A stretch of DNA of 50,042 bases from a virus (Duplodnaviria > Heunggongvirae > Uroviricota > Caudoviricetes), in IMG/VR virus record IMGVR_UViG_640753025_000001, positions 1-50,042 of that record; one strand, written 5' to 3'. The position numbers and the translations under genes were made by a program. Shown here in pieces: positions 10,754-49,768 of the stretch (position 1 is the stretch's first letter; each line of letters begins with the position of its first letter). The notes below the pieces were generated by a model that saw only the letters and a program-made list of their open reading frames with translations, had not been told where the DNA came from and did no database searches.

Positions 10754-10863
10754 GATGGTCTCCTTTAAGTGGCTTTGGCGCATGACGCGTCGAGGTGCTT
10801 ATCTTCTCGATCGCTGTCTTGCAGCTGCAATTCGCGCCATCCCCAAAACCACTCAAGTTCTGG

Positions 10864-10903
10864 TCTCAACGGTTAGGTTGAGAGTCCGTCGATGTTAAAG
10901 AGC
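10864..10903 (-). promoter_or_regulatory. nutL-like site (boxA + boxB hairpin)
   Basis: Minus-strand GCTCTTTAAC (boxA) then hairpin TCTCAAC-CTAACC-GTTGAGA; loop CTAACC shared with nutR candidate. Confidence 0.45.
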
Positions 10904-11040
10904 CTGCCAATCTGTTCCGTTTGGCTTCCAGCGTCCTGCTGATGGCTTAAATTTAAGACTTCTTAATTTATTGGTCAAGTGCATTTTTGAAGAAAACTTA
11001 ATTTTATGGGCGTGAATTTAGTTTGTCTTTGATTTTTAAC

Positions 11041-11067
11041 GGGAAATAAAAAAGGGGCGAAAGCCCC
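11041..11067 (-). terminator. rho-independent terminator after repressor gene
   Basis: Hairpin GGGGCGAAAGCCCC with minus-strand T-run directly after the repressor stop. Confidence 0.6.
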
Positions 11068-11718
11068 TTAAGGAAGGTTTGCTAGCTTGGCATCAACGAC
11101 AACGCCAATGATTTTACAGTTCCCATTGATTTCAATCATTGGGTATTGTGGATTGAGTGGTTTCAGGAATTTTCTACCGGCATCAATAACTAACTTTTTG
11201 AATGTCGCCTCGTTTTCTCCTTCAAGTTTGGCGACTACCAGCTTTCCATTACGTGGTTCGACTTCTGGGTCGACGAGAATAATCATCCCCTCAGGAATAC
11301 TCAGTCCTGCCGGGGCAGTCATTGAATCGCCTTTAACGTCGAGCCAAAAAGAGTCTTCAGAACAATCTACCGTTGTGTCGTACCAGTTATCTATTGCACG
11401 CCTATGATATGGCTCTACAGCTTCCATCCAACATCCTGCGCTTACCCAACTAATTAGAGGATACGAACCTCTTGGATCATGCCTGCTGTGATAGGCAATG
11501 TTTGAAAGACTATCCTCTCCTTTCAACAGGTAATCAGGGGAGCACTGCAAAGCCTTGGCTAAGGCCAATAGGTTTTCGCCATTGGGCTCAGTTTCAGATC
11601 GCTCCCATTGGGAAATAGCAACATTAGACACGCCAACCATCTTGCCAAGGGCAGCCTGCCTAATCTTGAGTTCTTTTCTGCGAGCGCGAATACGCTCACC
11701 CATCAGTTGTGTATTCAT
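11068..11718 (-). CDS. c2: prophage repressor, P22 C2 / lambda CI type (HTH + S24 peptidase)
   Basis: 216-aa ORF; N-terminal HTH, C-terminal S24 domain with intact KGDSM Ser and FKKL Lys; recalled as near-identical to P22 C2. Confidence 0.88.
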   Translation of the reverse strand: MNTQLMGERIRARRKELKIRQAALGKMVGVSNVAISQWERSETEPNGENLLALAKALQCSPDYLLKGEDSLSNIAYHSRHDPRGSYPLISWVSAGCWMEAVEPYHRRAIDNWYDTTVDCSEDSFWLDVKGDSMTAPAGLSIPEGMIILVDPEVEPRNGKLVVAKLEGENEATFKKLVIDAGRKFLKPLNPQYPMIEINGNCKIIGVVVDAKLANLP

Positions 11719-39867: not shown

Positions 39868-41778
39868 ATGACTGACACCAATTACCTGATCTCTATGCCG
39901 TCTACACCTTTTTCGGCGCCACGAGCATTTAAATCAGTGGCGAACGGGAAAATCTATATCGGAAACCCTGACACTGACCCGGTAAATCCTGCTAACCAAA
40001 TTCCGGTATATGCCGTTAATGAGAATGGATCCGAGGTTCAGGTTTCTCAGCCAATCATCATTAACGCTGGAGGCTTCCCTGTTTATAACGGGCAGATTAT
40101 GAAGTTCATCACCAAACAGAACTTCAGCATGGCGGTGTATGATGCATATGGGGCGCAGCAGTTTTACTGGATTAATGTTGCAAATATGGACCCAAACTCT
40201 GCGTATCTGGAAGCGGTTAATGATGTTCTTGCAATGCTGGGCTCAAGCGATGGCGCAAAACTGATAGGTGGAATGAGCTTTCTTACAGCGGAAATGTACT
40301 CTCATCTTGTTGAAGGGATGGACTGGAGGAAAGCAATTCAAGCTGCTATAGACCAAGCTCACCAGAACTATTTAGCCGGAAGCGGCCCAACCAATATTCT
40401 CATTGGAGGTGAATTCTCCGTTACTCTCAATCCTAATTCAACTTTGATACCTGGTGAGGTTGCTGCGGGTCGAGGTGCGCTGTGTATGCGTAGTGGTGTA
40501 ACACTGATGGGCGGCGGAGCAATCACGCTTGATGGCAATTTTACTGGCTCAGCCAGCGGCGCAATCATTACAAACTGGGAAGGCGCCGCCGATAACTGCA
40601 AGATTCAGGGGATCACGCTTAACGGCAGCCGTGGCACCGCTGCCGGAACGGGGATTACCTGCATTAATATCTTGGACTCGGATAATGTCACTATTGATAA
40701 CGTTAAGGCGATAGATAGCACTTCTGGAGGGATTTATTTACGCCGAGCTAACAATACGGTTTATGGCTGTTCTAACTCAAGAATTATGAACTGCTACGTT
40801 CACAACGTTGAATATATTGGCATTCAGTGTGAACGCCCCAACGGGATGACCATTACGGGATGTGCCGTAGCCTCCTGCGGTGATAATGGCATTGATATCT
40901 TTGGTAACGTAACTGACGAATCTGGACAGGGAGTTGCGGAGGATGTTGTTGTTAGTAATAACACTATCCGTGATGTAAGCGTAGGAGTGTTCATCGAATC
41001 ATGCGGAAACGTGGCAATATCTTCGTGCCGTATTTCAGGATTTAGTAACTCTGGTGTTTTCTTTAACCGGATAAATACAGCTGCGTATAATTGTTCTGTA
41101 ATTGGATGCACGATAACAGGGGCGGATATTACCTCCAGCCAGGGCATCCGCTGGAAGAATGCAGTTGGTTACACTCGCGTTTATAACAACACACTAAAAA
41201 ACTGTATTGACTCCTTTGTGACAACTGGAGGGATGATTTACGTTGATATTGGGGTGAATAACCATGAAAGCATTGGCAGGTGTTTTCTTTACGTTCCCAA
41301 AAAATCTAACGGATGTGTCTATACAAGAATGGTTCAGCAGGTCTACAACGGAGTTCAGACAGATGGCATACCGTACAACACGACACCTCGTGGTTGGCCA
41401 TCCGCAAACAACACTAGGTACTATCGCTGTTCATTCACCGCGCCGTACATGATGTATTCCGCTACGACTGGGGAAGATAACCTCATTCGGGCTACAGGCA
41501 ATTTGCCATTCAACAGTGGCTGGGGGCCTGCTTACTCGCTATACAATACGATTGTTTCTGGAGAAACAGTAATAGCCATGGGGAGCTCGCTACTGTCTGC
41601 CGGTGAATACATGCTAATAAACGGTTATTATTATTTAGTTTATAGCGTCACATCATCCTATGCTGTAGTAAGGAAATGGGATGTATCCAGTCAGGACTAT
41701 ATTGCCGGAGACTACACATCTTATTTAAATAGCGCATACGCATATTCCATCTTCAGAGCTGCTTGGGGAACACTATGA
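39868..41778 (+). CDS. tailspike protein (P22-type head-binding domain + divergent receptor-binding domain)
   Basis: 636 aa; N-terminal ~110 aa (FKSVANGKIYIGNPDTDPVNPANQIPVY) collinear with P22 gp9; remainder Gly/Asn/Ser/Thr-rich with repeated short strands. Confidence 0.88.
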   Translation: MTDTNYLISMPSTPFSAPRAFKSVANGKIYIGNPDTDPVNPANQIPVYAVNENGSEVQVSQPIIINAGGFPVYNGQIMKFITKQNFSMAVYDAYGAQQFYWINVANMDPNSAYLEAVNDVLAMLGSSDGAKLIGGMSFLTAEMYSHLVEGMDWRKAIQAAIDQAHQNYLAGSGPTNILIGGEFSVTLNPNSTLIPGEVAAGRGALCMRSGVTLMGGGAITLDGNFTGSASGAIITNWEGAADNCKIQGITLNGSRGTAAGTGITCINILDSDNVTIDNVKAIDSTSGGIYLRRANNTVYGCSNSRIMNCYVHNVEYIGIQCERPNGMTITGCAVASCGDNGIDIFGNVTDESGQGVAEDVVVSNNTIRDVSVGVFIESCGNVAISSCRISGFSNSGVFFNRINTAAYNCSVIGCTITGADITSSQGIRWKNAVGYTRVYNNTLKNCIDSFVTTGGMIYVDIGVNNHESIGRCFLYVPKKSNGCVYTRMVQQVYNGVQTDGIPYNTTPRGWPSANNTRYYRCSFTAPYMMYSATTGEDNLIRATGNLPFNSGWGPAYSLYNTIVSGETVIAMGSSLLSAGEYMLINGYYYLVYSVTSSYAVVRKWDVSSQDYIAGDYTSYLNSAYAYSIFRAAWGTL

Positions 41779-42833: not shown

Positions 42834-43064
42834 TTACTGTGTCTTTTCGTCCAGCCAGTCCGCCCACCACTGCATCATTTCTCTGCGTTTATCGAGATAC
42901 TGAGCATGGTTGTATATTCCACGCACAGATCCGCCGTTGGCATGAGCGAGTTGCACTTCGATAGTTTCGTGATGCACCAAGTGATCAAAGTAATGAAATT
43001 TAACATCCAAGCCTCCATCGATCGATACTTGCGGTAGTTGATAAGGAAAAACTATGGTACACAA
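42834..43064 (-). pseudogene. C-terminal fragment of a P4-type tyrosine integrase
   Basis: EVQLAHANGGSVRGIYNHAQYLDKRREMMQWWADWLD aligns with the C-terminus of the intact integrase at 43465..44673; no N-terminal/catalytic part. Confidence 0.6.
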
Positions 43065-43255: not shown

Positions 43256-43304
43256 ATTCGTAATGCGAAGGTCGTAGGTTCGACTCCTATTATCGGCACC
43301 ATTT
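43256..43304. repeat. attR core: 49-bp direct repeat (displaced 3' part of thrW)
   Basis: Exact copy of 1399..1447. Confidence 0.8.
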
Positions 43305-43464
43305 CAAACTCTTCCCAAGTCTACCGAAATCAACTAAAAGCTCGTATACTGCGGTTTCTGGCCCGTATCTTATCTCCTGTTATCAACTAGACTCAACCGA
43401 AATCAAGTCGCAGTTGGGGGCATAAGTGGGGGCATTTTGTGTTCGGTCTAGGGAGATGCCCCCA

Positions 43465-44673
43465 ATGAAACTTAATGCGCGACAGGTAGACGCAGCTAAA
43501 CCCAGAGAGAAAGCCTATAAGCTGGCAGATGGTGCTGGTTTGTATCTTGAGGTTGTTCCCTCTGGTTCCAGATACTGGCGGATGAAATATCGCTTCAATG
43601 GAAAAGAGAAGCGTATGGCCTTTGGTGTCTATCCGGCAGTGTCCCTTGCACAAGCGAGGGCACTGCGTGACGACGCCAAGAAAAAGCTTGCCGAAGGTAT
43701 CGATCCATCGCTTGCCAAGAAAGAAGAAAAGCTGGTTCGAGATGTGCAGCTAAATAATACGTTTCAGGCTGTGGCACTTGAATGGCATGGAACGAAGGTG
43801 AGCCGATGGTCAGAAGGTTATGCCTCGGACATTATCGAAGCCTTTAATAAAGATATTTTTCCCTATATTGGCCAACAACCGGTGAATGAAATCAAACCGC
43901 TGGTTCTGCTTAATGTGCTGCGTCGAATTGAAAGCCGTGGCGCGACAGAGAAGGCCAAGAAGGTTCGCCAGCGTTGCAGCGAAGTCTTTCGTTACGCCAT
44001 CGTAACCGGTCGTGCGGAATACAATCCTGCAGCGGATCTTACCAGCGCGATGTCAGGGCATGAATCGAAGCATTATCCCTTCCTTACTGTTGAGGAGTTA
44101 CCAGACTTTTTTAAAGCTCTCGCAGGCTACACAGGAAGCCCGTTAGTTGTTCTTGCGGCACGTCTGCTGATCCTCACGGGAGTTCGCACTGGCGAACTCC
44201 GAGGTGCTTTCTGGAGTGAGTTTGATCTTGAAAAAGCGGTGTGGGAGATACCTGCCGAGCGTATGAAGATGAAACGGCCTCACCTTGTCCCCCTCTCTAC
44301 CCAAGCGCTGGAAATCGTACAGCAACTCAAAGTGATGTCAGGGCAATATCCACTGGTGTTCCCGGGACGTAATGATCCCCGCAAGACGATGAGTGAAGCG
44401 AGTATTAATCAGGTTTTTAAGCGGATTGGATATACGGGGAGGGTAACGGGGCATGGTTTCCGTCACACGATGAGTACGATTTTGCATGAGGAAGGTTTCA
44501 ATACAGCGTGGATTGAAACCCAGCTGGCTCACGTTGATAAAAATGCGATTCGTGGGACGTATAACCATGCGTTGTATTTGGAAGGACGTAGGGAGATGAT
44601 GCAGTGGTATGCGGACTATATAAACGCTAATCATAATTCATGTATTTCTTTGCTGGTGAACGCTACAAAGTAG
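43465..44673 (+). CDS. int: tyrosine integrase, P4 type
   Basis: ATG at 43465 after GGGAGA; catalytic HGFRHT and RGTYNHALY regions; begins 160 bp after the tRNA 3' repeat, reading away from it. Confidence 0.9.
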   Translation: MKLNARQVDAAKPREKAYKLADGAGLYLEVVPSGSRYWRMKYRFNGKEKRMAFGVYPAVSLAQARALRDDAKKKLAEGIDPSLAKKEEKLVRDVQLNNTFQAVALEWHGTKVSRWSEGYASDIIEAFNKDIFPYIGQQPVNEIKPLVLLNVLRRIESRGATEKAKKVRQRCSEVFRYAIVTGRAEYNPAADLTSAMSGHESKHYPFLTVEELPDFFKALAGYTGSPLVVLAARLLILTGVRTGELRGAFWSEFDLEKAVWEIPAERMKMKRPHLVPLSTQALEIVQQLKVMSGQYPLVFPGRNDPRKTMSEASINQVFKRIGYTGRVTGHGFRHTMSTILHEEGFNTAWIETQLAHVDKNAIRGTYNHALYLEGRREMMQWYADYINANHNSCISLLVNATK

Positions 44674-44914: not shown

Positions 44915-46123
44915 ATGAACAGTAACTATATGCCATTCACACAACGAGATAGTCTCGGAAGATACTATACAAAAGAATCCATAAGTGCATTATTGGTTTC
45001 TCAGATGAAAGCTGAAAAAGTCAATAATATTATTGATTTAGCTTCTGGTGAGGGGAGCTTAACCTATGCTGCTTTAGACCGATGGAAGAATGCAGAAGCA
45101 TATTCTTTGGATATAGAATCTCGGATGTCAAAAAAAGTATGTGATAATCTTACTCATATTGTAACAGATGCCCTTGTTCATTCATTTCCTGAAATGCTTG
45201 CCCGACATCAAGGAAATTTTGATGTTGCAGTATGTAATCCTCCATTCACTCTCCCTGAATGGAGGGATGATTATTTTAAAATCATTAGTGAGATTGGCGC
45301 AGATAAATATATATCTGTCTCAAAATATGTCCCAGCAGAGATAATATTTATATCTCAAGTCATCAGGTTTCTTAAAAAGGGCGGTGAGGCTGGAATAATT
45401 TTACCTGATGGTATATTTACAGCAAGAAAGTTTATAGGTTTAAGACGATATTTATTGAATGAACATTCAATTACAAAAGTCATTGAATTGCCTAGGAATA
45501 TCTTCAAAAGGACAGAGGCTAAAACACATATTTTAATTTTTAATAAAAAAATTATGCCTCATCATAAAATACAATTACATTGTATAACTAAAGATGGGGA
45601 ATTGTCGCCTCCTGTTTTAATTAGAAAAGAAGATGCGGTTGAGAGAATGGACTACTCTTATCATTATAATAAAAATGAAGGTAAAGGGTTTAGCACAATA
45701 GGGATGCTTAAAAATATTTCAATTTTTAGAGGTAGGTTTAATTCAAAGGAAATTACGGAACATGTTTTTCATACGACAAAATTTAGTGGTGATGAAAAGT
45801 ACATTAAATTCCACTGCAACTCTGTAGAAGAATTGAAGCCATCAAAATTAGATGTCATTGCTAAGCCTGGTGATATATTAATAGCAAGAGTTGGGCGAAA
45901 TTTTCATAAAAAAATATTGTTTGTTGAGAGCGGCTATTCTTATATCAGTGACTGTATTTTTCTGATACGAGCCTCTGGTGGAGATAAGAAAAAACTATTT
46001 GATTTTCTTTGTTCTCAAGATGGGCAAGAGGAATTATCTCGAGCGAGTAGTGGTGTAGCCGCACAACATATTACAATGGATGCATTAAAAAAAATACATC
46101 TTGTAAGGATTAAACATGACTGA
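44915..46123 (+). CDS. N6-adenine DNA methyltransferase, gamma class
   Basis: 402 aa; GRYYTKESI (motif X-like), IIDLASGEGSLT (AdoMet motif I), CNPPF (motif IV, 45236..45247); ~160-aa C-terminal putative recognition domain; AT-rich. Confidence 0.8.
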   Translation: MNSNYMPFTQRDSLGRYYTKESISALLVSQMKAEKVNNIIDLASGEGSLTYAALDRWKNAEAYSLDIESRMSKKVCDNLTHIVTDALVHSFPEMLARHQGNFDVAVCNPPFTLPEWRDDYFKIISEIGADKYISVSKYVPAEIIFISQVIRFLKKGGEAGIILPDGIFTARKFIGLRRYLLNEHSITKVIELPRNIFKRTEAKTHILIFNKKIMPHHKIQLHCITKDGELSPPVLIRKEDAVERMDYSYHYNKNEGKGFSTIGMLKNISIFRGRFNSKEITEHVFHTTKFSGDEKYIKFHCNSVEELKPSKLDVIAKPGDILIARVGRNFHKKILFVESGYSYISDCIFLIRASGGDKKKLFDFLCSQDGQEELSRASSGVAAQHITMDALKKIHLVRIKHD

Positions 46124-47822
46124 TGTGGAATTAGATAGTAATTTTCTTATCGAGGAACGAGCTGATTATATTGATGAGGATACGATAAAAAATAATACTA
46201 TCAGATCTGGAGAGTTTTTCGATATTATACATAATGCTCTTATATCCCCAGGCATCAAACTTATAGTTGGTCCTAGGGGATGTGGTAAAACACATTTGAT
46301 GCGTTATGCTTGGGTTGAATGTAAAAACGATGATAACGCACCATTACCACTCTATGTTTCTTTTAATAAATATTTTAAGTTAGAGCCGCTTTTAAAAAAT
46401 AAACCAAATGCAATTGATCTCTTTCATAAATGGGTATTAGCAAAGATACTACTCTCTGCTTATGAAATTGCTTGCGATATTGAAGATTCTGAATATCTTG
46501 ATTTGTCAACGATACTCATAGCGGATAAAGAGTTCCTAATTAATTTAATCGTAAGGCTTGAGCAGGGTCTTTCGCCATCATTAGAACAAGAAAACATTGT
46601 TCAATTGATCAGTGTTTCTTCTGTCATATCCTCGTTGAGTTCACTATGTGATTGGCTTGAACGTAAAAGAGTCATTATTTTATTAGACGATGCAGCAATA
46701 AGCTTAACTCCTGAATATCTTTACGAGTTTTTTGATATTGTACGTAGTCTAAAAACCTCAAAAATAGCTTTAAAGGCATCGGTTTATCCTGGAACAACCG
46801 AATATGGCCCAAGGTTTCATGTTGCTCATGATGCTGAAACAATTGATGCTTGGATTTCGGTACAGCACCCTAATTATTCCTCAGTGATGGATGCTATAGC
46901 GCAGGCAAGGTTTCCTGGGTATGATGGCATTCCGGATGACTTGAAAGAGTTATTTAAATTCTCAGCATTTGGTATTCCACGTTCTTTTTTGATGATGTTA
47001 AGAGATTATCAAACAACTTTAAGTCAGACAACTCAGCAAAAATTTAATAAAATAATTGAAAGGTATGTTGAGCTTAGACTCAGCGAATACAGTTCACTAA
47101 AAGATAAGCTACCTCGATTGTTTGACATTGTTTCATTAGGTGAATCACTTTTATTAAAAGTAGTCGAATTACTCAAGGAAAGTAACTCCCAATATAAAGA
47201 AGAGAAACAAGTCATAATCGGTATAGAGAAAAATGATAATGTTTATTTTTCTCGACTCACTAAGCTATTAATTGAAACAGGGCTTTTTTATAATCTTCCT
47301 GATATTTCTCATGGTGATGGGCGTACTTATGAAAGATATATACCTCATTATGCTTTATTAATAAAGGAAAGAGTGTTTAACGAAGGAAGTAGAGGTTTTT
47401 CTCCTTCTCAGATTATTCAAAAAATACTAAGAAAGAATGCTAAGCATCCTGTCAGAAGAAACATTTCATCATTATTCAATGCTGAGCAACTTGCGAGACT
47501 TAAACTAACTTTACCTCCATGCAATAACTGCAAGACTCCGCGATTGACTGACAATCAAAAATTTTGCCATCATTGTGGGAATCAATTGATTGATGAGTCG
47601 GCCTATAATCAGTGCATGTCTATTCCACTGTCAAAAGTACCACATCTAACATCTTGGCAAATGCAAAAACTATCTGGGCTGGAAAAAGTAAAAACTATAG
47701 GAGATGTATTGTCTTTACAAGACCCTGGGAGTGAGTTAAGAAAAATTCACAGAATAGGACCCAAAATTGCCAATAAAATTATGGACAAAGTGTTATTACA
47801 TGTTGAAGAGTTTTTGTCTTAA
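46116..47822 (+). CDS. P-loop ATPase with C-terminal zinc ribbon and helix-hairpin-helix
   Basis: 568 aa; Walker A GPRGCGKTH (46269..46295), Walker B-like VIILLDDA, CNNCKTP...CHHCGNQL (from ~47519), HhH IHRIGPKIANKI; start overlaps MTase stop. Confidence 0.7.
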   Translation: MTDVELDSNFLIEERADYIDEDTIKNNTIRSGEFFDIIHNALISPGIKLIVGPRGCGKTHLMRYAWVECKNDDNAPLPLYVSFNKYFKLEPLLKNKPNAIDLFHKWVLAKILLSAYEIACDIEDSEYLDLSTILIADKEFLINLIVRLEQGLSPSLEQENIVQLISVSSVISSLSSLCDWLERKRVIILLDDAAISLTPEYLYEFFDIVRSLKTSKIALKASVYPGTTEYGPRFHVAHDAETIDAWISVQHPNYSSVMDAIAQARFPGYDGIPDDLKELFKFSAFGIPRSFLMMLRDYQTTLSQTTQQKFNKIIERYVELRLSEYSSLKDKLPRLFDIVSLGESLLLKVVELLKESNSQYKEEKQVIIGIEKNDNVYFSRLTKLLIETGLFYNLPDISHGDGRTYERYIPHYALLIKERVFNEGSRGFSPSQIIQKILRKNAKHPVRRNISSLFNAEQLARLKLTLPPCNNCKTPRLTDNQKFCHHCGNQLIDESAYNQCMSIPLSKVPHLTSWQMQKLSGLEKVKTIGDVLSLQDPGSELRKIHRIGPKIANKIMDKVLLHVEEFLS

Positions 47823-47892
47823 TTTTGATGGCATGTACTTGTCAATCGTGTCTTTCTTATCTGAAAAGTTTAATTTAAAAAGAGTCGGGAAA

Positions 47893-48870
47893 ATGGAACT
47901 AGAATCAAAAGAGGATTATGAAGAGACCACTCATCATAATGTGGCGTCCTCAGTTGTCACTGCAACCCATGATAACTTAGATGGAAGAGAGTTTTTTGAA
48001 CTATGTAGTAATCCAGCTCTAGTTTTTTCGTTTGAGACACACAAAAAATTTAATGAGTTACCTGTTGATAGCAAGGAATCCCCGTTAGATCTTTTTATAG
48101 CTAATACAAAGCAACTTCACTTGTTAAGATCTGGTGATATTTCAAACACATTAAGCCATCTGTTGTTATTAGGTTATGTGTCTGCAGCCGAAAGTTATTT
48201 GCGAGCTCTTATCAGAAATCTAATTAATCATGATGAATATATACAGTCTATAGTTTCTGATAAGGCCGTTAGTTATGCAGCGGCACAACACCATAAAAAG
48301 GAGTTATTACCAGAAGCTTTACTTGAGGACTTTTCATTGGCAAGCCCTTATAATGTTTTTGAAACATTAAAGGACATTATTGGAATGAAAGGACAACGAC
48401 CAATCGAAATGATGAAATGCTCAAGCGAATTCATGAAAGTTTGCGAGTTAAGGCATTGTTGTGTTCATCGATTTGGTAAGTTGGGTTCGAAAAATGCAAT
48501 CCGACTAGGATTGGCTGAACATATGAAGCACTTAGAAAAACCGATAATACTCAATAATGATGATCTCGAGCAAATCGCATTTATTGTTGAGAATTTTATT
48601 AGAACTTTGAATAATACCGTTTTCAAATTTATAATTAATCGTACAGTTGAGAACAAAAATAAGGAAAAAGGAGGGGAAAGACTATATGATTCTGAATGGA
48701 CATGGGTGTTTGAAAAAGATATAAGTCGATACGAAAAGTATTATTCAATATTTAGTGCCAAAAACGATACCCTTCCCGGATTATCATTACAGGATTCATA
48801 TCAACTTTTTGTTAATGCATATAAGCCTAAACTTCCTGCAAGAAAAAATAAAAAAACTGAAGAAAATTAA
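47893..48870 (+). CDS. hypothetical protein with Rx4H (HEPN-like) motif
   Basis: 325 aa from ATG 47893; RHCCVH at 48451..48468; AT-rich; alternative in-frame starts at 47767 and 47833. Confidence 0.5.
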   Translation: MELESKEDYEETTHHNVASSVVTATHDNLDGREFFELCSNPALVFSFETHKKFNELPVDSKESPLDLFIANTKQLHLLRSGDISNTLSHLLLLGYVSAAESYLRALIRNLINHDEYIQSIVSDKAVSYAAAQHHKKELLPEALLEDFSLASPYNVFETLKDIIGMKGQRPIEMMKCSSEFMKVCELRHCCVHRFGKLGSKNAIRLGLAEHMKHLEKPIILNNDDLEQIAFIVENFIRTLNNTVFKFIINRTVENKNKEKGGERLYDSEWTWVFEKDISRYEKYYSIFSAKNDTLPGLSLQDSYQLFVNAYKPKLPARKNKKTEEN

Positions 48871-49070: not shown

Positions 49071-49574
49071 TTATTGATAGTGTTTTATGTTCAGATAATG
49101 CCCGATGACCTTGTCATGCAGCTCCACCGATTTTGAGAACGACAGTGACTTCCGTCCCAGCCTTGCCAGATGTTGTCTCAGATTCAGATTATGTCGCTCA
49201 ATGCGCTGAGTGTAACGCTTGCTGATAACGTGCAGCTTTCCCTTCAGGCGTGATTCATACAGCGGCCAGCCATCCGTCATCCATACCACGACCTCAAAGG
49301 CCGACAGCAGGCTCAGAAGACGCTCCAGTGTGGCCAGAGTGCGTTCACCGAAGACGTGCGCCACAACCGTCCTCCGTATCCTGTCATACGCGTAAAACAG
49401 CCAGCGCTGACGTGATTTAGCACCGACGTAGCCCCACTGTTCGTCCATTTCAGCGCAGACAATCACATCACTGCCCGGTTGTATGCGCGAGGTTACCGAC
49501 TGCGGCCTGAGTTTTTTAAGTGACGTAAAACCGTGTTGAGGCCAACGCCCATAATGCGTGCACTGGCGCGACAT
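49071..49574 (-). CDS. insB: IS1 InsB (expressed as InsAB' by frameshift)
   Basis: 167-aa ORF recognised as IS1 InsB. Confidence 0.9.
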
Positions 49575-49768
49575 CCGACGCCATTCATGGCCATATCAAT
49601 GATTTTCTGGTGCGTACCGGGCTGAGAGGCGGTGTAAGTGAACTGTAGTTGCCATGTTTTACGGCAATGAGAGCAGAGATAGCGCTGATGTCCGGCAGTG
49701 CTTTTGCCGTTACGCACCACGCCTTCAGTAGCGGAGCAGGAAGGACATCTGATGGAAATGGAAGCCAC
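49493..49768 (-). CDS. insA: IS1 InsA
   Basis: 91-aa ORF recognised as IS1 InsA. Confidence 0.9.

Follow-up and report, generated by a model that had tools for sequence, protein, structure and literature searches.

The stretch of DNA analysed here (the window) is 50,042 nucleotides (nt) long and is recorded as viral (IMG/VR record IMGVR_UViG_640753025_000001, Caudoviricetes). Toward its end, three genes follow one another on the plus strand. Gene 1 (44915..46123) encodes a gamma-class N6-adenine DNA methyltransferase of 402 amino acids (aa), gene 2 (46116..47822, from ATG to TAA) encodes a 568-aa ATPase that our structural model places in the ORC/Cdc6 clade of AAA+ proteins, and gene 3 (47800..48870) encodes a predicted divergent HEPN protein of the RiboL-PSP-like type, which we call P3. 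The segment 44700-49000 is 100% identical to Escherichia coli HS and 147 of the 5426 complete E. coli genomes carry it at ≥99% identity, in every case on the chromosome and as a single copy. The three genes form a conserved mobile cassette of a methyltransferase, an ORC/Cdc6-like ATPase and a predicted HEPN ribonuclease (RNase). This triad looks like an uncharacterised phage-defence system resembling restriction-modification (R-M) systems, and its probable weapon is an RNase, not a DNase.

The original prediction, made from the letters of the window, had assigned to the product of gene 2 a P-loop ATPase domain, a zinc ribbon and a helix-hairpin-helix (HhH) tail, and all of these motifs were located within 46116-47822. 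Walker A is GPRGCGKTH (aa 52-60, nt 46269..46295), and the Walker B strand is VIILLDDAA (nt 46671..46697), which is of the hhhhDD type (VIILLDD, aa 186-192). The zinc ribbon is CNNCKTPRLTDNQKFCHHCG (aa 469-488, nt 47520..47579) and the HhH motif is IHRIGPKIANKI (aa 544-555, nt 47745-47780), and all of these motifs are on the plus strand. The four-cysteine ribbon had been written as CNNCKTP-x10-CHHC; the cysteines are as described, and the spacing needs correction, as eight residues follow KTP and the motif is C-x2-C-x11-C-x2-C (CNNC-x11-CHHC, aa 469-487). When we scored the motifs in 81 genomic homologues with a median identity of 39%, and also in an alignment of 36 homologues, the sequence GPRGxGKTH, both Walker B aspartates, a downstream FGIPR motif and all four cysteines were invariant (81/81), and the hairpin glycine of the HhH motif, Gly548, was present in 77 of the 81. 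Chance matching of these motifs can thus be ruled out.

We then built an AlphaFold (AF2) model of the ATPase from the alignment of 36 homologues. The model was confident, with a predicted local distance difference test (pLDDT) of 85.9 and a predicted template-modelling score (pTM) of 0.82; a model from the single sequence was unusable (pLDDT 41). When the model was compared with the PDB using Foldseek, human ORC4 (7jpo_D) was the first match (E 3.8e-7), followed by Orc1/Cdc6 proteins of Sulfolobus, Aeropyrum and Pyrobaculum (2qby, 2v1u, 1fnn) and PAB2304 of Pyrococcus (2qen), with TnsC, RdrA, MalT, RFC and McrB at lower ranks. The structural examination revealed the features that define AAA+ proteins of the ORC/Cdc6 clade. 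First, the Walker A and Walker B motifs are in place. Second, insert helices (aa 99-180) lie between strand 2 (aa 77-82) and the Walker B strand (aa 186-191), and this long helical insert is the most variable region of the family. Third, the helical lid (aa 254-360) contains the invariant FGIPR (aa 285-289) with the sensor-2-like R289. Finally, a C-terminal winged-helix domain (aa ~365-418, nt 47208..47369, plus strand) was assigned from DSSP of the model and from conservation; its hairpin spans aa 391-410, and H399, R403, Y405, R407 and H411 on this β-hairpin wing are near-invariant. The order of domains is an N-terminal ExRAD motif, the AAA+ core (aa ~40-250), the lid, the winged helix, the zinc ribbon and a five-helix (HhH)2-like domain at the C-terminus (47595..47819, plus strand), which includes IHRIGPKIANKI, was delimited from the model helices and a match of the family consensus to HHH_5, and is present also in a sister family described below.

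ORC/Cdc6-clade initiator and switch AAA+ proteins are ATP-dependent DNA-bound switches and not translocases. Because the AlphaFold model matches ORC4 and archaeal Orc1/Cdc6, the ATPase is modelled as a switch-type AAA+ protein of this clade, rather than a translocase, with three putative DNA-binding modules. The AAA+ core, the helical insert after strand 2, the G-x-x-R lid and the winged helix are shared with archaeal Orc1/Cdc6, eukaryotic ORC4/ORC1 and the archaeal PF01637-type ATPase PAB2304 (2qen), although the ATPase is only 12-16% identical to these proteins, has an hhhhDD Walker B as in STAND and PF01637 proteins, and differs from them in its additional zinc ribbon and (HhH)2 tail, its patchy distribution on mobile islands and its operon with a methylase and an HEPN-like gene. 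The suggestion that the protein is a DNA-sensing or translocating effector therefore divides: DNA sensing fits the fold, translocation does not, and the effector is more likely P3, so that the ATPase is probably a sensor or switch. A helicase or translocase identity was rejected, as no helicase motifs or matches were found and the fold is that of ORC/Cdc6. A housekeeping replication initiator was also rejected, since the gene occurs in 2.7% of E. coli, has a low GC content and lies on an integrase island.

Sequence searches with the ATPase gave few assignments. In Pfam, aa 40-122 matched PF24389 ('ORC-CDC6-like') with 37.9 bits, where the cut-off is 27 bits, covering only positions 27-121 of the 571 of the model; the zinc-ribbon and HhH matches of the E. 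coli protein itself were sub-threshold. With the family consensus, the C-terminus gave matches to zinc-ribbon families (E 3e-5) and to HHH_5 (E 2e-4), none of which reached the gathering score. The NCBI pipeline names the proteins 'ORC-CDC6 family AAA ATPase' or 'zinc ribbon domain-containing protein'. Sequence and profile searches against the PDB yielded no significant match, and neither did PADLOC v2 and NCBIfam (June 2026), which is in agreement with the earlier view that the protein does not belong to the standard restriction, Mcr or helicase subunits. Named defence systems in the latter two collections were considered and set aside, as the ATPase had only sub-threshold matches (HEC-02A, 7.7e-5; DS-41, 0.008; Sll1717, 32 bits against 75) and P3 had none.

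The combination of domains had been described as unusual; it is not, however, an isolated case. In a search of 5.8 billion proteins, 738 homologues of the ATPase at E≤0.001 were found among 8000 candidates scored, mostly 560-590 aa long and aligned from end to end, and among 1.84 billion cluster representatives a profile of the family matched 448 clusters (185 at E≤1e-30). The ATPase therefore belongs to a conserved, NCBI-named family, and with only 448 clusters the family is small.

The methyltransferase matches Pfam N6_Mtase (1.7e-22) and Eco57I, and carries motif I (DLASGEGSL, aa 41-49) and motif IV (NPPF, aa 108-111). It consists of an HsdM-like catalytic domain and a C-terminal domain resembling target-recognition domains; its PDB matches are M subunits of type I systems, and the C-terminal domain is weakly similar to an S-subunit-like domain (MAD5). 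The PADLOC model MTase_II (PDLC03285) matches over the full length with 784 bits. The ATG of the ATPase gene overlaps the stop codon of the methyltransferase gene by 8 nt (ATGACTGA), and an AAGGA Shine-Dalgarno sequence lies 7 nt upstream. Translational coupling of the two genes had been proposed; the operon and its overlap with an N6-adenine methyltransferase gene are confirmed, and the overlap together with the AAGGA sequence makes the coupling itself plausible.

The P3 gene, which was absent from the original prediction, encodes two motifs that are invariant in 80 of 80 aligned sequences. One is Ex3R (consensus VSAxESYxRAxxR; in E. coli VSAAESYLRALIR, nt 48178-48216, E131-x3-R135), and the other is Rx4H (consensus ELRHCCVHRFGKLG; in E. 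coli CELRHCCVHRFGKLG, nt 48442-48486, R218-x4-H223), both on the plus strand. An Rx4-6H catalytic motif together with Ex3[KR] is the signature of catalytically active HEPN RNases (PMC3710099). The sole Pfam match of the P3 consensus was PF18735 (HEPN_RiboL-PSP; 17 bits, E 0.006), over 157 positions (32-188 of 191). A few family members weakly match the PADLOC models of reverse transcriptase-associated HEPN (RTasHEPN) and Csm6, and one homologue bears the UniRef name 'RiboL-PSP-HEPN'. E. coli P3 itself had no match in Pfam, NCBIfam, PADLOC or PDB sequences. The C-terminal extension of P3 is conserved and contains invariant N271, R281 and D307. Judging from the two motifs and the profile matches, P3 is likely an HEPN protein. 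Its start codon is uncertain. PGAP places it at ATG 47800, but in most homologues the first ~60 residues of the annotated E. coli open reading frame (ORF) are missing and the protein starts near the equivalent of ATG 47893. At one locus (L026), an additional HEPN gene of the Cthe_2314 type (10823-11623) is located just downstream, and hhalign of the P3 profile with this protein revealed no similarity.

We examined the linkage of the three genes in 81 loci; 80 loci were taken from contigs of one genome per species, and gene content was determined by tblastn and ORF clustering. The phyla represented include Proteobacteria, Bacteroidota, Myxococcota, Planctomycetota, Bacillota and Acidobacteriota. 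The ATPase and P3 genes are adjacent in 80 of the 81 loci, the lone exception being a truncated contig, and a methyltransferase homologue is present in ~75. Three layouts were observed: the usual order is methyltransferase, ATPase, P3; in 12 loci it is ATPase, P3, methyltransferase; and in 3 the methyltransferase gene is divergent. Intergenic gaps range from ~-16 to +60 nt, and overlaps of 1-4 nt are frequent. The pairwise identities of the proteins co-vary (ATPase-P3 r=0.87, ATPase-methyltransferase r=0.57), and no fourth conserved gene was found beside the triad among the 80 loci. Integrases, resolvases and transposases are the commonest immediate neighbours, and the neighbours are otherwise heterogeneous. 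About 1 in 10 is a known defence gene (PARIS AriA, Lamassu LmuA, type I restriction endonuclease, retron reverse transcriptase, HEC-06, PD-T4-5, Menshen NsnB or a CARF6-like gene). The triad is on four megaplasmids and was found in none of 50,697 phage records. In Serratia (L083-L085), it lies in opposite orientation amid conjugation genes carried by an ICE (integrative conjugative element), including TraG_N, TraU, TraC_F_IV, DUF3438 and DUF2895; in one of these loci (L084), the P3 gene is two ORFs.

Several variants of the cassette were found. A sub-clade of five loci, with ATPase identities of 0.5-0.73, has an intact ATPase-P3 pair and no methyltransferase gene within 8 kb; these loci (L026, L053 and L058 in Bacteroidota, L027 and L052 in Thiotrichales) are surrounded by housekeeping genes. 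Three small contigs (L086-L088) encode a 522-aa fusion of the methyltransferase catalytic domain, without its C-terminal domain, to P3, and have no ATPase gene; most simply, the fusion is a deletion derivative of the operon in its usual order. A sister ATPase family of ~538 aa, with 412 confirmed metagenome matches, is homologous over the full length (hhalign E 2e-53), with the zinc ribbon cleanly deleted and the HhH tail kept. In 74 of 80 sister-family loci (metagenome contigs L089-L168), it is paired with a ~245-aa protein encoded directly upstream, which carries an invariant YRECSxxVHGN motif with Rx6H-like spacing, has no Pfam match and no significant PDB match, and was negative in hhalign against P3. 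These loci contain neither a methyltransferase nor a P3 homologue, and the pair looks like a separate two-gene system. An ATPase with a different partner and no methyltransferase fits a design of a sensor with a swappable effector. In the picture that emerges, the zinc ribbon is a discrete insertion, the ribbon and the methyltransferase were added in the lineage of the triad, and the ATPase-effector pair is the ancient core.

A further module directly adjoins the triad in 8 of the 80 loci (L002, 10815-14728; L018, L021, L028 and L080, upstream of the ATPase; L020, L060 and L062). It comprises co-oriented genes for a PRTase-CE protein (PF24390, resembling the PADLOC PRTase_III-A models), an ATPase of PF24389 proper and a CARF6-like protein (PADLOC 7.5e-61). 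The module ATPase of L002 (11799-13805) matches PF24389 over the full length with 321 bits. Its hhalign match to the triad ATPase family (probability 94%) is confined to aa 9-67. In these eight loci, two paralogous ORC-like ATPases stand side by side. The PF24389 ATPases share with the triad ATPase the N-terminal RAD/RAE motif and the G-RGCGKT-LMRY P-loop; in contrast, no similarity was detectable past the ~60-100 N-terminal residues, and their partners are PRTase and CARF6-like proteins instead of a methylase and an HEPN-like protein.

We propose, with a probability of roughly one half, that the methylase labels the cell's own DNA, that the ATPase detects DNA without this label and that the HEPN protein responds by cutting RNA. 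By homology, the methyltransferase would place N6-methyladenine on a motif of the host DNA and thereby mark it as self. As its fold suggests, the ORC/Cdc6-like ATPase would bind DNA via the winged helix, the zinc ribbon and the (HhH)2 tail, and in its ATP state it would assemble on DNA lacking the methyl mark. This assembly may license the HEPN-like P3, a predicted metal-independent RNase, which would cut RNA and halt translation, so that infection would be aborted or phage gene expression blocked. More tentatively, the triad may represent an undescribed class of innate immunity in which an ORC-like AAA+ protein reads DNA methylation and a dedicated HEPN RNase cleaves RNA without a DNA nuclease. 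This class would be part of a wider group of ORC-like, HhH-tailed sensors with swappable small effectors, which would include the sister system lacking zinc ribbon and methylase and would be linked to the PRTase/CARF6-like module.

Here, we need to consider several points that weigh against the proposed mechanism. The fold and motifs of the ATPase, the gene linkage, the co-evolution, the mobile and defence-island context and the HEPN-type motifs of P3 were computed here; the methylation of a motif, the discrimination of methylation state by the ATPase, the activation of P3 and its RNA substrate are steps that we infer, and a literature search found no experiment on any family member. The assignment of P3 to HEPN is a prediction from sequence, with the consensus under the PF18735 gathering score (17 against 28.4 bits), and Pfam detected no HEPN match in 30 individual homologues. 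The sub-clade lacking a methyltransferase indicates that methylation cannot be universally required. The candidate arginine finger R233 (in GPRFH) is arginine in 50 of the 81 ATPases, next to the invariant F234 and H235; an arginine finger is therefore not clearly conserved, and ORC-like oligomerisation remains putative. Finally, R-M families typically have variable specificity domains, whereas the C-terminal domain of this methyltransferase is not hypervariable, being no more variable than the catalytic domain.

Among the other explanations, we considered a classical ATP-dependent R-M system, in which P3 would be a DNA endonuclease of a new or unrecognised fold, the ATPase would load it or loop DNA as McrB does for McrC, and unmethylated DNA would be cut. 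A tightly linked methylase of a REBASE-type Type II family (784 bits with MTase_II), an operon structure typical of R-M systems, the presence of McrB among the weaker fold matches of the ATPase and the conserved C-terminal extension of P3 with its three invariant residues would all be consistent with such a system. Nevertheless, the resemblance to McrB is only marginal (sequence E 0.25; fold E ~1e-3), and the triad differs from McrBC in that its partner protein is not McrC-like and a methylase is present. The triad has a cognate methyltransferase as R-M systems do, but no recognisable restriction endonuclease subunit was found: searches with Pfam, NCBIfam and PADLOC detected no DNase family in the ATPase or P3, and no significant match to a nuclease model (PD-(D/E)xK, HNH, PLD or GIY-YIG) in any of the three proteins. 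P3 gave no family signal other than HEPN, and the invariant motifs Ex3R and Rx4H are of the RNase type. Moreover, bacteria of the methyltransferase-less sub-clade would die with a true R-M system of the DNase type. We thus regard a classical R-M system as unlikely.

A second explanation, modelled on PrrC-EcoprrI or PARIS, is a guard or decoy system in which a methylase-ATPase complex would keep the HEPN RNase latent until a phage anti-restriction factor (a DNA mimic or an inhibitor of the methyltransferase or ATPase) or a change in nucleotides frees it, resulting in abortive infection. HEPN anticodon nucleases that R-M proteins keep silent and an NTPase regulates, such as PrrC-EcoprrI, provide a precedent (PMC3710099), and PrrC-EcoprrI, RloC and other HEPN proteins from within R-M operons share with the triad the concept of an NTPase-regulated HEPN RNase tied to DNA-modification genes, with RNA targeting as a layer added to the self/non-self marking of DNA (PMC3710099). 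In PrrC and RloC, however, an ABC-type NTPase is fused to HEPN and a full type I R-M system with a DNase is present, while in the triad the NTPase is an ORC-like AAA+ protein of its own and a DNase is lacking. The surfaces of the winged helix, zinc ribbon and HhH domain would be natural targets of DNA mimics, and a methylase that is not hypervariable suits a role other than the diversification of specificity. On the other hand, the cassette contains no restriction nuclease for a phage to inhibit, the methyltransferase-less sub-clade and the sister family manage with the ATPase and a partner alone, and we found no direct evidence for this mechanism, to which we assign a low probability.

A BREX-like (bacteriophage exclusion) mechanism without cleavage seems very unlikely. 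The ATPase would occupy unmethylated phage DNA and block its replication or transcription, with P3 in a structural or regulatory role. The comparison comes from BrxC and BrxD of BREX and from the DUF499 ATPases, which are AAA+ proteins of the ORC/Cdc6 type that act with a methylase (PMC12839542), and from E. coli HS, in which the cassette adjoins BREX. In the BREX-related DUF499/Hma systems, an ORC/Cdc6-type ATPase and a methylase are combined with a helicase-nuclease, and some DUF499 ATPases have a fused HEPN domain proposed to be a suicide effector (PMC12839542). The triad shares with BrxC/PglY and DUF499 (Hma) an ORC/Cdc6-type ATPase with DNA-binding winged helix-turn-helix modules and an N6-adenine methylase. 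In contrast to these systems, it has no Swi2/Snf2 helicase-nuclease, PglZ, BrxL or Lon-like protein or BrxA/B, its HEPN protein is separate and the sole candidate effector, and its ATPase, of half their size, ends differently, in a zinc ribbon and HhH. The PADLOC models of BREX and Hma ATPases gave no significant match to the ATPase, and the invariant Rx4H and Ex3R motifs of P3 point to catalysis rather than to a structural role. A non-immune role, in which mobile elements would use the cassette for selfish addiction or for epigenetic or other regulation (for example, killing by an HEPN toxin after segregation once methylation lapses), is likewise very unlikely: the cassette invariably lies on DNA that is mobile or variable, such as islands, ICE and megaplasmids, and a methylase with a toxin-like protein can stabilise an element, but this would not be exclusive of defence, defence-island neighbours are present, and the cassette is absent from the phage records and rare on plasmids (4 matches).

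The logic of a sensor NTPase and an effector is also common to the triad and to STAND-like NTPases and RADAR RdrA, which belong to a related NTPase clade; the triad differs in that DNA-binding modules instead of repeat arrays would serve as the sensor, the effector is a separate protein and a methylase is attached. In our analysis, the BREX-related/Hma systems and PrrC-EcoprrI appear to be nearest to the triad in concept. A literature search revealed no description of the triad; its coverage of subscription journals was incomplete, and an earlier description is possible. The accessions of the E. coli proteins were found neither in the DefensePredictor supplements nor in searchable full text, and a 2026 study of E. 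coli HS states that, of the predicted immune loci of this strain, BREX alone has been studied. The uncharacterised triad falls within a known kind of defence system, namely the methylation-linked, NTPase-driven systems.

In the chromosome, the cassette (GC 33%) is part of a composite region with the order thrW, P22-like prophage, 25-nt repeat, P4-type integrase, three-gene cassette, IS1 and BREX-1, the last of which lies past the end of the window. The tRNA-Thr gene thrW is at 1369-1444, and an exact 25-nt copy of its 3' end (43277..43301, plus strand) forms the attachment (att) junction at which the P22-like prophage meets the integrase island. The P4-type tyrosine integrase of the island (43426..44673, plus strand; Pfam Arm-DNA-bind_3, Phage_int_M and Phage_integrase) starts with GTG at 43426 in the ORF list, and the PGAP start is 39 nt downstream (~43465). 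The cassette is bounded by an IS1 copy (49071..49768, minus strand), and the same junction is present in other E. coli. Past IS1, the HS chromosome has a truncated, frameshifted ORF and then the BREX-1 operon (brxA, brxB, brxC, pglX). In strain 13E0767, tRNA-Thr, integrase, cassette and IS1 follow one another without the intervening prophage, and the IS1 junction leads into genes for lactate utilisation and for a type I R-M system in place of BREX. This prophage-free order indicates that the cassette is the cargo of a small thrW island.

The ~42-kb P22-like prophage in thrW (1369-43301), which carries a tailspike gene (39868-41778), Arc and an S24 peptidase-like gene, stands between the thrW tRNA and the older integrase island and is probably phiHS4 of bioRxiv 10.64898/2026.05.19.726188. 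At 42834-43064 on the minus strand lies the remnant of a second P4-type integrase, a C-terminal fragment whose sequence (...RGIYNHAQYLDKRREMMQWWADWL) is similar to the end of the intact enzyme encoded at 43426-44673. The fragment is an annotated pseudogene in HS and suggests that elements have inserted one after another at the same att site. In the cassette, scans for promoters and terminators gave results no better than shuffled sequence.

If the proposed mechanism is correct, epigenetic self-marking would control, by way of a DNA sensor resembling a replication initiator, a response that is RNase-based and probably abortive, and the system would join two strategies that are usually separate, namely the DNA discrimination of R-M and BREX-type systems and the RNA attack of the HEPN type. 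With a length of 3.9 kb and an origin in E. coli, the system lends itself to direct testing. For E. coli HS, the triad would be a second methylation-linked system beside BREX, with a bearing on the phage-resistance and methylome data of this strain. The ATPase family itself, as modelled here, would be a bacterial, non-replicative use of the ORC/Cdc6 fold in combination with zinc-ribbon and HhH modules.

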